A stretch of 35,367 nt of DNA from Burkholderiaceae bacterium (GCA_039925165.1 JBDSZM010000035.1:1-35367); one strand, 5' to 3'; shown: positions 439-9,950, numbered from the stretch's first letter. Notes: generated by a model from the letters alone, not told the origin. Program-made: numbers and translations.

Positions 439-2055
439 ATGGCAATACTTCAATCGAATGTGGCCAGGACCGGCACAGAGTTCAAACGTAGCGCCGCTTC
501 GATGATGAAGCTTGTGGACGAGGTGCGTGCGCTGGAACAGCGCGCGATCGACCGTTCAGCCCGCGCAGCCGGGCGGTTCCACTCCAGCGGAAAGCTGCTG
601 CCGCGTGAACGTCTGGCGCACCTCCTGGATTCCGGCACTTCGTTTCTGGAGCTGATGAGCCTGGCCGGCTATTGCGGCATCGAGGACCCCGATCCCACAA
701 CGAGCATTCCGGGCGCCGCCCTCATTGCGGGGATTGGTTGCATCAGCGGTGTGCGGTGCGTGATCGCCATCAACGACGCGGGCATCAGTGCCGGAGCGAT
801 GCAGTCGCTCACGGGTCAGAAGCTGATACGCGCGCAGGAGATTGCTCTCGCGCAGAAGCTGCCTTTTGTACAACTGGTCGAAAGCGCGGGTGGCAATCTG
901 AAGAAGTACCGCGTCGAGCGTTTCATCGTCGGCGGCGGCATGTTCTACAACTTGGCACGTCTGTCGGCTGCCGGACTTCCGGTGATTTCATTGATCCACG
1001 GGTCGTCCGCAGCGGGTGGCGCCTACCTACCCGGCCTGTCCGACTACGTCGTCATGGTGCGCAAGCAGGCGCGTGCCTTCCTCGCTGGACCAGCGCTGCT
1101 CAAGGCCGCTACCGGAGAAGAGTCCGGCGAAGAGGAGCTTGGCGGCGCGGACATGCACGCACGGACTTCCGGCCTGGCCGACTACGTAGCTGACACCGAC
1201 CTCGACGGCATTGCCCGCGTGCGCGACATCGTGCGAGCGCTCGACTGGCCCGAGACGACGTCGTCAACGACTTCGCATGAACCCCGGTTCGACCGGGAGG
1301 ATCTGCTCGGGCTGATGCCCGTGGAGGCACGGACGCCGGTGGACATGCGCGAACTCATCGCACGCCTCGTGGACGACTCGGACTTCCACGAATTCAAGGC
1401 CTTGTACGGCAGTGCCACCGTTTGTGGCTATGCGCACATCCGCGGCCATGCCGTCGGCATCCTCACCAACAATGGGCCGCTGGACACAGCGGGCTCGACC
1501 AAGGCCGCGCAGTTCATCCAGCTCTGCGTCCAGCTCGATCGCCCGCTGCTGTTTCTGCAGAACATCACGGGCTTTATGGTCGGGCGGGCCCACGAAGAGG
1601 CCGGCATGATCAAACACGGTGCCAAGCTGATTCAGGCGCTGTCGAACGCACCGGTGCCCCGCATCACGGTGCTCTGCGGTGCCTCTTACGGCGCCGGCAA
1701 CTACGGCATGTGCGGCCGGGCTTTCAAGCCCTCGTTCCTCTTCTCCTGGCCCAACGCCAAGACCGCCGTGATGGGCGGCGAGCAGGCCGCCATGACGATG
1801 CGGCAGGTGGCCGAGGCCGCAGCCAGACGCGCCGGCGAGACCGTCGATGAGCAGGCCCTGACACGCGAGAGCCAGGCCATCGTCGACACCTTCAATTCGC
1901 AATCCAGCGCCATTCACACCAGCAGCTTGCTGCTGGACGACGGCGTCATCGATCCGCGCGACACGCGGGCAGTGCTGGGCTTTGCTCTGGAGACCGTGAC
2001 CCAGGCCCGACTGCGCAAGGTTTCACCGATCCAGTTCGGCGTGGCTCGGCTCTGA
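439..2055 (+). CDS. acyl-CoA carboxylase carboxyltransferase (beta) subunit, methylcrotonyl-/geranyl-CoA carboxylase type (MccB/LiuB/AtuC-like)
   Basis: 538 aa. MAILQSNVARTGTEFKRSAASMMKLVDEVRAL..SGKLLPRERLAHLLDSGTSFLELMSLAGY, SSAAGGAYLPGLSDY and RITVLCGASYGAGNYGMCGRAF are typical carboxyltransferase-domain segments. ATG 439 is preferred over the ORF-track ATG 352 because homologues start M.IL.S; an AGGA lies just upstream. Confidence 0.9.
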   Translation: MAILQSNVARTGTEFKRSAASMMKLVDEVRALEQRAIDRSARAAGRFHSSGKLLPRERLAHLLDSGTSFLELMSLAGYCGIEDPDPTTSIPGAALIAGIGCISGVRCVIAINDAGISAGAMQSLTGQKLIRAQEIALAQKLPFVQLVESAGGNLKKYRVERFIVGGGMFYNLARLSAAGLPVISLIHGSSAAGGAYLPGLSDYVVMVRKQARAFLAGPALLKAATGEESGEEELGGADMHARTSGLADYVADTDLDGIARVRDIVRALDWPETTSSTTSHEPRFDREDLLGLMPVEARTPVDMRELIARLVDDSDFHEFKALYGSATVCGYAHIRGHAVGILTNNGPLDTAGSTKAAQFIQLCVQLDRPLLFLQNITGFMVGRAHEEAGMIKHGAKLIQALSNAPVPRITVLCGASYGAGNYGMCGRAFKPSFLFSWPNAKTAVMGGEQAAMTMRQVAEAAARRAGETVDEQALTRESQAIVDTFNSQSSAIHTSSLLLDDGVIDPRDTRAVLGFALETVTQARLRKVSPIQFGVARL

Positions 2056-2111
2056 CGGCCGTCGCCACCGAAGGCGCCATTCGACATTCAGTTCACCGCA
2101 AGGAGACTCCC

Positions 2112-3095
2112 ATGACTTTCGACAGACGACAGACCCTCGGCATGCTTACCGCGCTCACGGCAGGCTGGGCCGTTCCCGCCCTGGCTCAGACAGAAGCCTG
2201 GCCCACCAAGACGGTGCGCTTCATCGTCGGCGCGGCCGCCGGCGGCTCGGCCTCCGACGTCGTCACGCGTTACTACGCCGAGCAGATTGCACAGCGCTCG
2301 GGACAGACCGTCCTGGTCGAGAACCGCCCGGGTGCCGACGGCAACCTCGCGGCTGCCTTCGTCGCCACTTCGGCGCCCGATGCGCACACGTTCCTGGTCA
2401 CGGGCAACAACACCCACGCGGCCAACGTGCACCTGTACAAGTCCATGTCCTTCGATCCGGACAAGGACTTTGCGCCCGTGACCACCTATGCCCGCGTGCC
2501 CTATGTGCTCTTGATCAATCCAAACCGGGTGGCCGCGCGCAACTTCAAGGACTTCATTGCGCTGGCCAAGGCCAACCCCGGCAAGCTCACCTACGCCAGC
2601 GCCGCCGTAGCCAGCCGTGTTGGCGTTGAACAGCTCAAGCTGATGGCGGGCTTTGATGCGCTGAACGTGGTCTACAAATCGGGTGCGCAGGCCATGACCG
2701 ACTTGTTGGGCGGCCACGTGGACTTCTACATCTCGGATGCCGCCAACGGCCTGAAGCAGGTCCGCAACGGCCGCCTCGTCGCCTTGGCGGTCACCGTGGC
2801 GCAGCGCCTGCACGTCGCACCCGATCTGCCCACCATTGCCGAGTCGGGTTTCCCGGACTTCGACTTCGCGTCCTGGCTGGCCATATGGGCACCCGCGGGC
2901 TCACCGCCCGCCCTGGTGAAAGCGGCGAGCAAGACGATCAACGAAGTCATGGGATCCGCTGCCGGCTTGCAGCACCTGGACAAGCTCGGTGTGCTGCCCT
3001 TTCCAGGCTCACCCGAGTCGCTGCTGGCGCTGCAGCGCCGCGAGACCGAGCGTTGGGGCCAGGCGATTCGCGCGGCCAAGTTGCAGCCGAACTGA
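2112..3095 (+). CDS. Bug-family (TctC-like) periplasmic solute-binding protein of a tripartite tricarboxylate transporter
   Basis: 327 aa. Signal peptide MTFDRRQTLGMLTALTAGWAVPALAQ, then WPTKTVRFIVG..AGG, ENRPGADGNLAA and YKSGAQAMTDLLGGHVDFYISD, the canonical Bug fold signature. AAGGAGA RBS upstream. Confidence 0.92.
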   Translation: MTFDRRQTLGMLTALTAGWAVPALAQTEAWPTKTVRFIVGAAAGGSASDVVTRYYAEQIAQRSGQTVLVENRPGADGNLAAAFVATSAPDAHTFLVTGNNTHAANVHLYKSMSFDPDKDFAPVTTYARVPYVLLINPNRVAARNFKDFIALAKANPGKLTYASAAVASRVGVEQLKLMAGFDALNVVYKSGAQAMTDLLGGHVDFYISDAANGLKQVRNGRLVALAVTVAQRLHVAPDLPTIAESGFPDFDFASWLAIWAPAGSPPALVKAASKTINEVMGSAAGLQHLDKLGVLPFPGSPESLLALQRRETERWGQAIRAAKLQPN

Positions 3096-8947: not shown

Positions 8948-8972
8948 CTTCCAATCACCCAAGGAGACAAGC

Positions 8973-9950
8973 ATGCCGATCAGTAGAAGAGAGTGGATGG
9001 GAATGGCCGCCGCGACGGCCGCCTCGGGATGGCCTGCGCTGGGCTTTGCCCAGACGCTGGACAAACCCGTACGCGTGATCGTGGCCTATGGCGCGGGCAG
9101 TGTCAGCGACATCCTGGCGCGCTTTCTGGCCGACCGCATCGCCAAGAACGGCGGACGCAGTGCGGTCGTCGAAAACAAGGCCGGCGCCGACGGCAACATC
9201 GCCGCCGAAGCCGCGGCGCGCGCTTCCGCCGATGCCTACACTCTGCTGGTATCCGGCTCGTCGACGCATGCCGCCAACGCGACCATCTACCGCAAGCTGC
9301 CCTTTGACCCGGAAGCCGACTTCAGTCCGATCTCCACCCTGGCGGTCGCACCCTTCATCCTTCTGGTCAATCCGCAGCGCATCCAGCAACGCTCGCTCAA
9401 GGATTTCCTGAGCTGGGCGCGCGCGGGCGCAGGTCATAACCTCTCGTTCGCCAGCACAAGCGTCGGCAACCGCGTGTCGGGTGAGCGCTTTCGGCAGATC
9501 GCCAACCTAAACGCGGTCAATGTGCCTTATCGCTCCAGCGGCCAGGCCATGACCGACCTGCTGGGCGGCCAGTTCGACTTCTACTTCTGCGATGTCACCA
9601 CCGCGCTGCCGCAGATCCGGGCGGGCAAAGTGGTTCCGCTGGCCGTGTCGGTCCGCGATCGGCTGGCGGCGCTGCCTGATGTGCCCACTCTGGCCGAGTC
9701 GGGATTCACCGATTTCGACATCGCATCCTGGATCGCAATGTGGAGCGCGGTGGCATCCACGCCCCCGGAGGTTTCGGCCCGACTGGCGCAGTGGGTCAGC
9801 GAAGCGCTGGACTCTGCCGAAGGCCGTGAGTTCGTCGCCAGCAAAGGCCTGCTGCCGGCCCCCAGCGGAGTCGATGCGCTACGTCAGCTGCAGCGCCGCG
9901 ACACTGCGGTCTGGGGCAAGATCATCCGCGAAACGGGCATGCAGCAATAG
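8973..9950 (+). CDS. Bug-family (TctC-like) periplasmic solute-binding protein
   Basis: 325 aa from an internal ATG of ORF 8814..9950. AAGGAGA RBS. Signal MPISRREWMGMAAATAASGWPALGFAQ, then ENKAGADGNIAA and YRSSGQAMTDLLGGQFDFYFCD. Confidence 0.92.
   Translation: MPISRREWMGMAAATAASGWPALGFAQTLDKPVRVIVAYGAGSVSDILARFLADRIAKNGGRSAVVENKAGADGNIAAEAAARASADAYTLLVSGSSTHAANATIYRKLPFDPEADFSPISTLAVAPFILLVNPQRIQQRSLKDFLSWARAGAGHNLSFASTSVGNRVSGERFRQIANLNAVNVPYRSSGQAMTDLLGGQFDFYFCDVTTALPQIRAGKVVPLAVSVRDRLAALPDVPTLAESGFTDFDIASWIAMWSAVASTPPEVSARLAQWVSEALDSAEGREFVASKGLLPAPSGVDALRQLQRRDTAVWGKIIRETGMQQ

Follow-up and report, generated by a model that had tools for sequence, protein, structure and literature searches.

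A LysR-linked two-operon cluster of Burkholderiales that probably specifies Atu-type removal of the beta-methyl branch from imported carboxylic acids

The Atu pathway of Pseudomonas, encoded by atuR-atuABCDEFGH in P. aeruginosa and P. citronellolis, proceeds through carboxylation of a beta-methyl group, hydration and release of acetate. Since the pathway was described, its AtuA protein has been regarded as essential but functionally unclear. The Liu system (liuRABCDE) likewise runs through a dehydrogenase, a carboxylase and a hydratase, and uses 3-methylcrotonyl-CoA carboxylase (MCC) together with HMG-CoA lyase. Two other systems bear on AtuA: the citramalate lyase CmlAB (PDB 9erq/9evf; the Raoultella planticola enzyme was used in bioRxiv 10.64898/2026.01.16.699985), and the thn operon of anaerobic naphthalene degradation, in which the AtuA-like lyase ThnQS is found beside a CoA-transferase (ThnP), an acyl-CoA dehydrogenase (ACAD), a crotonase and a thiolase (PMC12016498). 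Here we describe a locus in a stretch of 35,367 nucleotides (nt), the window, which is a whole contig (GCA_039925165.1 JBDSZM010000035.1:1-35367) of a Burkholderiaceae bacterium metagenome-assembled genome (MAG) that is 64% complete. Two operons, at 439-9950 and about 10891-16686, flank a LysR-family regulator gene, and it is probable that they form one regulon by which an imported carboxylic acid loses its beta-methyl branch in the Atu manner.

Operon 1 consists of seven intact, closely packed genes on the + strand (Table 1), delimited by listing of open reading frames (ORFs), start-codon inspection and Pfam scans. The intergenic gaps are 56, 8, 53, 2 and 25 nt, and an ATGA overlap joins the stop of the carboxylase alpha subunit to the start of AtuA. 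A previous reading made from the sequence alone (the sequence-only reading) had described this layout, the gene families, the gaps and the overlap, all of which the scans confirmed, and its view that periplasmic Bug proteins are built into the operon is supported. The likeness to the Pseudomonas Atu system lies in the chemical logic and in an AtuC/AtuF-type carboxylase with the glycine of geranyl-CoA carboxylase (GCC), a full-length AtuA, an ACAD in the AtuD position and a predicted AtuE-type hydratase with a single catalytic Glu. The differences are as follows: (i) the genes are arranged in two operons around a LysR gene, whereas the Atu regulator, AtuR, belongs to the TetR family; (ii) the unit includes a family III CoA-transferase, along with one or two binding proteins of the tripartite tricarboxylate transporter (TTT) type; (iii) the window has as extras a putative PaaG-like isomerase, a second ACAD, a second CoA-transferase and a thiolase, and (iv) its carboxyltransferase forms a clade of its own, with a one-residue insertion beside the selectivity Gly. 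The short-chain dehydrogenases AtuB/AtuG, the synthetase AtuH and AtuR were not found among the window ORFs scanned, as the sequence-only reading had stated for the first two; nor was any HMG-CoA-lyase-like (HMGL-like) gene, short-chain dehydrogenase or AMP-forming ligase found among the larger of these ORFs. With Liu the locus shares the gamma-carboxylating lineage and the dehydrogenase, carboxylase, hydratase sequence. Unlike Liu, it has neither the MCC signature (Phe plus an insertion) nor, among the ORFs scanned, an HMGL-type lyase, its relatives keep a separate Liu cluster, and the cleavage would release free acetate while CoA stays on the long fragment.

The sequence-only reading had called for a survey of neighbourhoods combining AtuA, carboxylase and Bug genes. 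Such a survey, covering the best 80 AtuA loci from species genomes, revealed a conserved unit with the window-type arrangement at 20 of them. The order is carboxyltransferase, [Bug protein 1, crotonase], ACAD, alpha subunit, AtuA, Bug protein 2, LysR on the opposite strand, CoA-transferase 1, the crotonase-family protein ECH2, [second ACAD, CoA-transferase 2, thiolase], where the bracketed genes are accessory and absent in Achromobacter. The carriers belong to the Comamonadaceae (Acidovorax, Ramlibacter, Variovorax, Polaromonas) and Alcaligenaceae (Achromobacter, Pusillimonas, Jezberella and others), and 19-20 loci of these two families have kept together the genes for the carboxylase, AtuA, Bug protein, LysR, CoA-transferase and ECH2. 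The most basal and minimal version, in Jezberella montanilacus (L018:3428-14171), lies among trpBA, accD and RNase E genes and comprises a TetR regulator instead of LysR, ECH2, carboxyltransferase, ACAD, alpha subunit, AtuA, one Bug protein and one CoA-transferase; no HMGL gene was found among the ORFs scanned in this 21-kb locus. Since this minimal unit keeps both genes, uptake through a TTT protein and activation by a CoA-transferase would belong to the core of the system. Of 150 genus representatives from the family to which the MAG belongs, 69 have AtuA-family genes, and just one of these 69 carries an orthologue with 60% identity or more; hence the window type is rare and patchy. The cluster is a real conserved pathway, a rare rearranged Atu variant and not a separate kind. 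A literature search returned no paper that deals with the cluster in Achromobacter, Variovorax or Ramlibacter.

The type of the carboxylase was examined on its carboxyltransferase beta subunit, for which the top match in a PDB search was PaGCC beta (5ikl_B, 543 bits), ahead of PaMCC beta (474 bits) and human MCCB (442 bits). According to the annotation rules of Jurado et al. (PMC4673880), an extended N-terminal helix, which PCC beta is without, marks the gamma-carboxylating lineage; within it, MCC has Phe191 after a three-residue insertion and GCC has Gly162 without the insertion. Residues 4-537 of the window protein align with residues 3-536 of PaGCC beta with no N-terminal gap, so that the extended helix is present, and PCC-type chains align to it only from about residue 24-41. 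A Gly occupies the Gly162 position (ERF-IVGGGMF), with a single extra residue relative to PaGCC beside it; the Phe and the three-residue insertion, which mark the 3-methylcrotonyl-CoA enzyme (LiuB/LiuD), are absent. Liu-type paralogues served as a control in the same alignment and show VFPDREHFGRIF, that is, Phe plus insertion. Those of Variovorax sp. Root473, Achromobacter sp. M1 and Ramlibacter albus have the MCC sequence VFPDR(E/D)HFGRIF and are 44-47% identical to the window beta subunit; all three genomes carry the window-type cluster too. In two of the three an HMGL-like gene is found at a distance of 8-9 kb from the paralogue, as expected for a Liu cluster. A maximum-likelihood phylogeny, also suggested by the sequence-only reading, was built from 63 carboxyltransferase sequences, P. 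aeruginosa AtuC and LiuB not being among them. Sequences of the window type group into a 20-member clade (SH-aLRT 99) nested in a long-stemmed clade of 54 AtuA-linked enzymes (support 100), apart from the Liu type, and the orthology to bona fide MCC on which the sequence-only reading was to fall was not found. The PDB bit scores, the published signature and the internal Liu-type controls together assign the carboxylase, at the level of sequence, to the GCC (AtuC/F) type and not to MCC. The alpha subunit matches PCC/MCC-type alpha subunits over its full length and has the biotinylation site ESMKMEM. No NCBIfam equivalog scored above cut-off for the carboxyltransferase, ACADs, crotonases or CoA-transferases. 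The other carboxyltransferases of the MAG (C46 and C221) are about 30% identical to both MCC and GCC types; neither an MCC-type paralogue nor a short HMGL-type lyase was found in the MAG, a result that its 64% completeness makes uninformative either way.

Two observations on related carboxyltransferases can be added. In AtuA-linked enzymes of Luminiphilus/Halieaceae (L064, L069, L070 and L072) the Gly162 position is occupied by Phe without the three-residue insertion (SRFGNVF), a combination suggestive of a smaller pocket for the substrate in this part of the GCC-like clade. Besides, carriers of the window-type cluster have one or two further GCC-like paralogues per genome, 52-59% identical (G001:C20:187735-189336, G003:C10:49650-51200 and G003:C1:10534-12150); because these accompany the cluster, several branch-removal systems would coexist in a single genome.

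In AtuA both family domains score above the Pfam gathering score (PF07287, 462.9 bits; PF23544, 97.4 bits). An AlphaFold (AF2) model based on 33 homologues was confident (pLDDT 90, pTM 0.90), and Foldseek returned for it one outstanding match, 9evf_A of the citramalate lyase-ADP-pyruvate complex (E 1.6e-22), while the small chain, 9evf_B, matched the C-terminal ferredoxin-like domain of AtuA. VIA-align gave this match a Z of 31.6 and an rmsd of 3.6 Å over 420 of 456 residues, the next entry having a Z of 9.3. Residues 10-459 of AtuA superpose on CmlA and its C-terminal domain on CmlB. The AtuA alignment profile also reached 9evf_A, entered as 'AtuA family protein / citramalate lyase subunit A', with an E of 1e-8, and the motifs GRxxDxA, (I/L)xEC and LYExxDP are common to both proteins. 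A single-sequence search of the PDB with AtuA gave no match, CmlA being reached by profile and fold search only.

CmlAB performs a retro-aldol cleavage at a tertiary carbinol beside a carboxymethyl-type group, with release of acetate, and a reaction of this type is proposed for AtuA; such chemistry is the step required after carboxylation and hydration of a 3-methyl-2-enoyl-CoA. ThnQS has been described as an 'AtuA-like lyase' that converts a 3-hydroxy tertiary-alcohol acyl-CoA into a 3-oxoacyl-CoA (PMC12016498), and AtuA has been tentatively named HIHG-CoA:acetate lyase (PMC4847356). Because of the CmlAB fold match and the ThnQS report, AtuA, a fused CmlA-CmlB homologue, is most likely the lyase of the pathway and would act as an acetate-releasing 3-hydroxy-3-alkylglutaryl-CoA lyase, a role assigned from the model and by analogy. 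AtuA differs from CmlAB in being a single fused chain of 615 residues and in its expected CoA thioester substrate, whereas the substrate of CmlAB, an enzyme of glutamate/mesaconate metabolism, is a dicarboxylic acid in its free form. It also differs from ThnQS, which has two subunits and serves ring opening in strict anaerobes, where no biotin carboxylase takes part and the transfer by ThnP is intramolecular. Hence, the earlier statement that the operon has no lyase is misleading: the AtuA family includes a citramalate lyase of known structure and a reported lyase of tertiary-alcohol acyl-CoAs, and the operon very probably has its lyase. A literature search gave no primary paper for CmlAB.

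The hydratase is a different matter. The crotonase of operon 1, formerly read as AtuE/LiuC, has lost both catalytic Glu residues, as judged by motif (GAGFG, and SFSRVGLVPD with Asp), its PDB neighbours include PaaG-type enzymes and not AtuE, and it is missing at 13 of the 20 orthologous loci. Since the double loss is an isomerase pattern and not a hydratase one, this protein is probably a PaaG-like enoyl-CoA isomerase and not the hydratase of the pathway. ECH2, in the neighbouring operon, is instead the predicted AtuE-type enzyme: in the PDB search the isohexenylglutaconyl-CoA hydratase AtuE of P. aeruginosa (4zu2, 154 bits) ranked second for it, and it is a better match than the operon-1 crotonase to the crotonase encoded between the carboxylase genes in distant Atu-like clusters. 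In AtuE/LiuC the general-base Glu (Glu144 equivalent) is lost and the Glu164 equivalent is kept (PMC13689101); ECH2 shows this single-Glu pattern (GGGAG, FPE), the positions being set by motif and not by structure-based alignment. At window 12179-12260 the N-terminus of ECH2 has a Ser-Pro/Met-Pro repeat, SPSPSPSPSPMPMPMPSP, which derives from a short tandem DNA repeat. Its true start is uncertain because conservation with the orthologues begins at residue 28.

The operon-1 ACAD is 82-95% identical in most orthologous loci and 76% in that of Jezberella; it is 62-67% identical to the ACAD located between the carboxylase genes of distant Atu-like clusters, and its nearest structures are medium/long-chain ACADs, not IVD. 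CoA-transferase 1 is co-conserved with the cluster, Achromobacter included, and falls below the cut-off of every curated subfamily. CoA-transferase 2 has as its best match, also sub-threshold, succinate--glutarate CoA-transferase (326 bits, cut-off 750).

The LysR gene occupies the same position at 18 of the 20 window-type loci. The sequence CATAA-N7-TTAAGT occurs exactly twice over the 35 kb of the window, where 0.01 matches would be expected by chance, a statistic that is partly circular, the pattern having been derived post hoc from these two copies. A generalised dyad, TAAR-N5-HTTA, was found 99-181 nt upstream of the orthologous carboxyltransferase gene in 18 of the 20 loci and at the LysR divergent region in 10, with only two other matches in 408 kb. 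Because the generalised box recurs at orthologous loci, support for the operator is independent of the window. This evidence supports a single LysR regulon made up of both operons, with a putative operator common to the two. The earlier guess that the neighbouring CoA-transferases provide activation gains support from the co-conservation of the LysR, CoA-transferase and ECH2 genes (19-20 loci) and from the common LysR-type box. A scan for sigma-70 and terminator consensus sequences gave no signal above chance.

Both Bug proteins have twin-arginine leaders. Bug protein 2 is encoded downstream of AtuA in 19 of the 20 orthologous loci, and Bug protein 1 is confined to Comamonadaceae and Pusillimonas loci, being absent from the Achromobacter versions. 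The nearest structure of Bug protein 2 is a terephthalate-binding protein (171 bits), a match that is not diagnostic; prediction of the ligand from the solved terephthalate, citrate and adipate binders was discarded, these being too distant from the window Bug proteins. Of the TTT parts, the operon contains two TctC-family proteins and the window contains neither TctA nor TctB, while at least five TctA genes are located on other contigs of the MAG. A TctA gene unlinked to that of the binding protein is usual for Bug proteins.

Taking together the gene families, the GCC-type signature, the AtuA fold, the synteny and the common operator, we propose the following route, whose order and activities are predictions. 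The Bug proteins would capture the acid in the periplasm and entry would take place via unlinked TctAB membrane components. CoA-transferase 1, instead of a ligase, would activate the acid, and the AtuD-like ACAD would desaturate it to a 3-methyl-2-enoyl-CoA, for which the operon-1 crotonase, as an accessory, may provide the correct double-bond isomer. The biotin carboxylase, formed by the alpha and the GCC-type beta subunits, would then carboxylate the methyl group, ECH2 would hydrate the product to a tertiary alcohol and AtuA would split the latter into free acetate and a 3-oxoacyl-CoA. Finally, the thiolase, the second ACAD and general beta-oxidation would complete the breakdown. The carboxylation-dependent route for a beta-branched carboxylic acid put forward by the sequence-only reading is judged the best one. 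The substrate is probably an imported beta-methyl-branched carboxylate, and probably larger than 3-methylcrotonyl-CoA, since with the GCC-type Gly at the selectivity position the pocket is predicted to exceed in size that for methylcrotonyl-CoA. The acid itself would be the entry compound, because carboxylate-binding proteins are used and alcohol or aldehyde dehydrogenases are not part of the unit. The sequence-only reading had set the route apart from classical citronellol catabolism; this separation should not be extended to citronellate- or geranate-type acids, which are candidate substrates, since the carboxyltransferase bears the GCC signature. Tentatively, and with lower expectation than for the route as such, the regulon could serve non-terpenoid beta-methyl-branched acids, such as TTT-imported methyl-branched dicarboxylates or naphthenic-type acids.

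Several points weigh against the proposed route. Every catalytic step, the order of the steps and the substrate are inferred. AtuA is only 17% identical to CmlA, the substrate of CmlAB is a free acid and not a CoA ester, and the ThnQS result is cited in PMC12016498 as unpublished. ECH2 scores 125 bits against the NF004227 model (gamma-carboxygeranoyl-CoA hydratase), whose cut-off is 426, and neither CoA-transferase matches a curated subfamily. The window count of the operator is affected by the circularity mentioned above, and a search of the LysR region in the Achromobacter loci did not turn up the strict box. Moreover, P. aeruginosa LiuE has been reported for the HIHG-CoA lyase step (PMC4097962) and the 64% complete MAG leaves room for an unlinked lyase. 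Both of these would agree with a scheme in which AtuA is not the lyase, cleavage being due to an unlinked LiuE of the HMG-CoA-lyase type and AtuA being accessory or engaged in a second carboxylase-coupled reaction; cluster-carrying relatives do have several HMGL-like genes elsewhere in the genome, and the ATGA overlap that couples AtuA with the alpha subunit would fit an accessory role too. We consider this scheme unlikely: the closest structural relative of AtuA is a C-C lyase of solved structure, which cleaves a tertiary alcohol with release of acetate, the AtuA-like ThnQS is reported to cleave exactly such an acyl-CoA, a carboxylase subunit gene is present in the fetched flank at 59 of the best 80 AtuA loci, and the compact Jezberella unit amid housekeeping genes has AtuA with no HMGL gene among its scanned ORFs.

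A dicarboxylic or alicyclic substrate, with ThnP-like transfer of CoA between carboxyls and Thn-like chain or ring cleavage by AtuA, is improbable to a similar degree. It would be in keeping with the known ligands of TTT binding proteins, mostly di-/tricarboxylates and aromatic diacids (the nearest structures bind terephthalate, adipate and citrate), with the presence of two family III CoA-transferases, for which the nearest curated models are those of enzymes acting on dicarboxylates, and with the gene content of the thn operon. Yet the carboxylase, the AtuD-like dehydrogenase and the AtuE-like hydratase make up the specific Atu set for a methyl branch, the identity of the binding proteins to solved structures is too low for ligand prediction, and CoA-transferase 2 is absent from the Achromobacter versions. 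The least probable reading is a plain leucine/isovalerate (Liu) pathway with MCC. The enzyme families are the same as those of LiuA/B/C/D and PaMCC beta is still a strong match (474 bits), but the Phe191 plus insertion signature is absent from the window and present in the true Liu-type paralogues of relatives, the carboxyltransferase clade is separate from the Liu type, the distinct paralogue of relatives (44-47% identity) is the one lying 8-9 kb from an HMGL-like gene, and the operon-1 dehydrogenase is not IVD-like. Removal of a beta-methyl branch through carboxylation, hydration and cleavage by AtuA is hence the reading that we retain.

Table 1. Genes and putative operator boxes of the two operons, numbered from the first nucleotide of the window
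Feature	Position	Strand	Evidence and remarks
LysR-type box CATAA-N7-TTAAGT, core T-N11-A dyad (putative operator)	290-307	+	147 nt upstream of carboxyltransferase start
Carboxyltransferase beta	439-2055	+	PF01039 E 9e-123; predicted geranyl-CoA-carboxylase (AtuC) type
Bug/TctC-family periplasmic binding protein 1	2112-3095	+	PF03401 E 4e-55; RRQTL Tat-type leader; accessory
Crotonase-fold protein	3104-3907	+	PF00378 E 1e-49; accessory, probably PaaG-like enoyl-CoA isomerase
Acyl-CoA dehydrogenase, AtuD-position orthologue	3961-5124	+	three ACAD Pfam domains
Biotin carboxylase + BCCP alpha subunit, AtuF type	5127-7103	+	BC N, ATP-grasp, C and biotinyl domains
AtuA, proposed fused CmlA-like + CmlB-like lyase	7100-8947	+	PF07287 E 1e-138 + PF23544
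Bug/TctC-family binding protein 2, conserved copy	8973-9950	+	PF03401 E 2e-48
LysR-family regulator	9975-10823	-	HTH_1 + LysR_substrate; convergent with operon 1, divergent from operon 2
Second LysR-type box (putative operator)	10821-10838	+	LysR/operon-2 divergent region
Family III CoA-transferase 1, proposed activating enzyme	10891-12147, start 10891/10894/10927	+	PF02515 E 9e-101
ECH2, predicted AtuE/LiuC-type hydratase	12179-13078, start uncertain 12179-12233	+	PDB match, single-Glu pattern
Second acyl-CoA dehydrogenase, accessory	13099-14280	+	ACAD domains; 86-92% identity in Comamonadaceae loci
Family III CoA-transferase 2, accessory	14306-15508	+	PF02515 E 7e-115
3-Ketoacyl-CoA thiolase, accessory	15505-16686	+	thiolase N and C domains; TIGR01930 394 bits, cut-off 240

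Upstream of operon 1, window positions 1-132 encode a C-terminal-looking fragment of an IS66-family transposase with the AHARRKF motif, which spans Pfam positions 137-178 of 284 before a stop and constitutes a remnant at the contig edge. Its location beside the cluster is consistent with lateral transfer of the latter as a unit. In relatives the upstream neighbour of the carboxyltransferase gene varies, being a gene for a TonB receptor, for an ABC transporter, or for an IclR regulator accompanied by an ADP-forming ligase, and because of this variation the carboxyltransferase is taken as the first gene of the conserved unit. The contig edge removes the upstream context, yet no essential gene seems to be cut off. 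Downstream of the thiolase gene there is about 1 kb without a recognisable gene (16687-17955), in which an ORF of 373 amino acids (16834-17955) matches no Pfam or NCBIfam family. Two other catabolic modules follow, each with its own Bug protein: one at 17735-29071, with Rieske oxygenases, E1 alpha/beta, HpcH aldolase, class II aldolase and an IclR regulator, and one at 29138-34682, with an aldehyde dehydrogenase and a 3-hydroxyisobutyrate-dehydrogenase-like gene.

The cluster combines the lack of an HMG-CoA-lyase-type gene with a strong fold match of AtuA to an acetate-releasing lyase, and this makes the lyase role of AtuA directly testable. It also corrects the automatic annotations 'enoyl-CoA hydratase' and 'MCCase' given to such genes. 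In Burkholderiales the pathway for branch removal would have been rebuilt, with a LysR regulator, TTT binding proteins and a CoA-transferase as its framework. The cluster also directs attention to branched-acid substrates of soil and freshwater that have gone unrecognised. If the substrates proved to be non-terpenoid, activation by a CoA-transferase and an AtuA lyase that works on CoA esters would make the cluster a Burkholderiales cassette for branch removal that is self-contained, moves horizontally and differs from Atu as well as from Liu, and AtuA would gain its first defined CoA-ester substrate.

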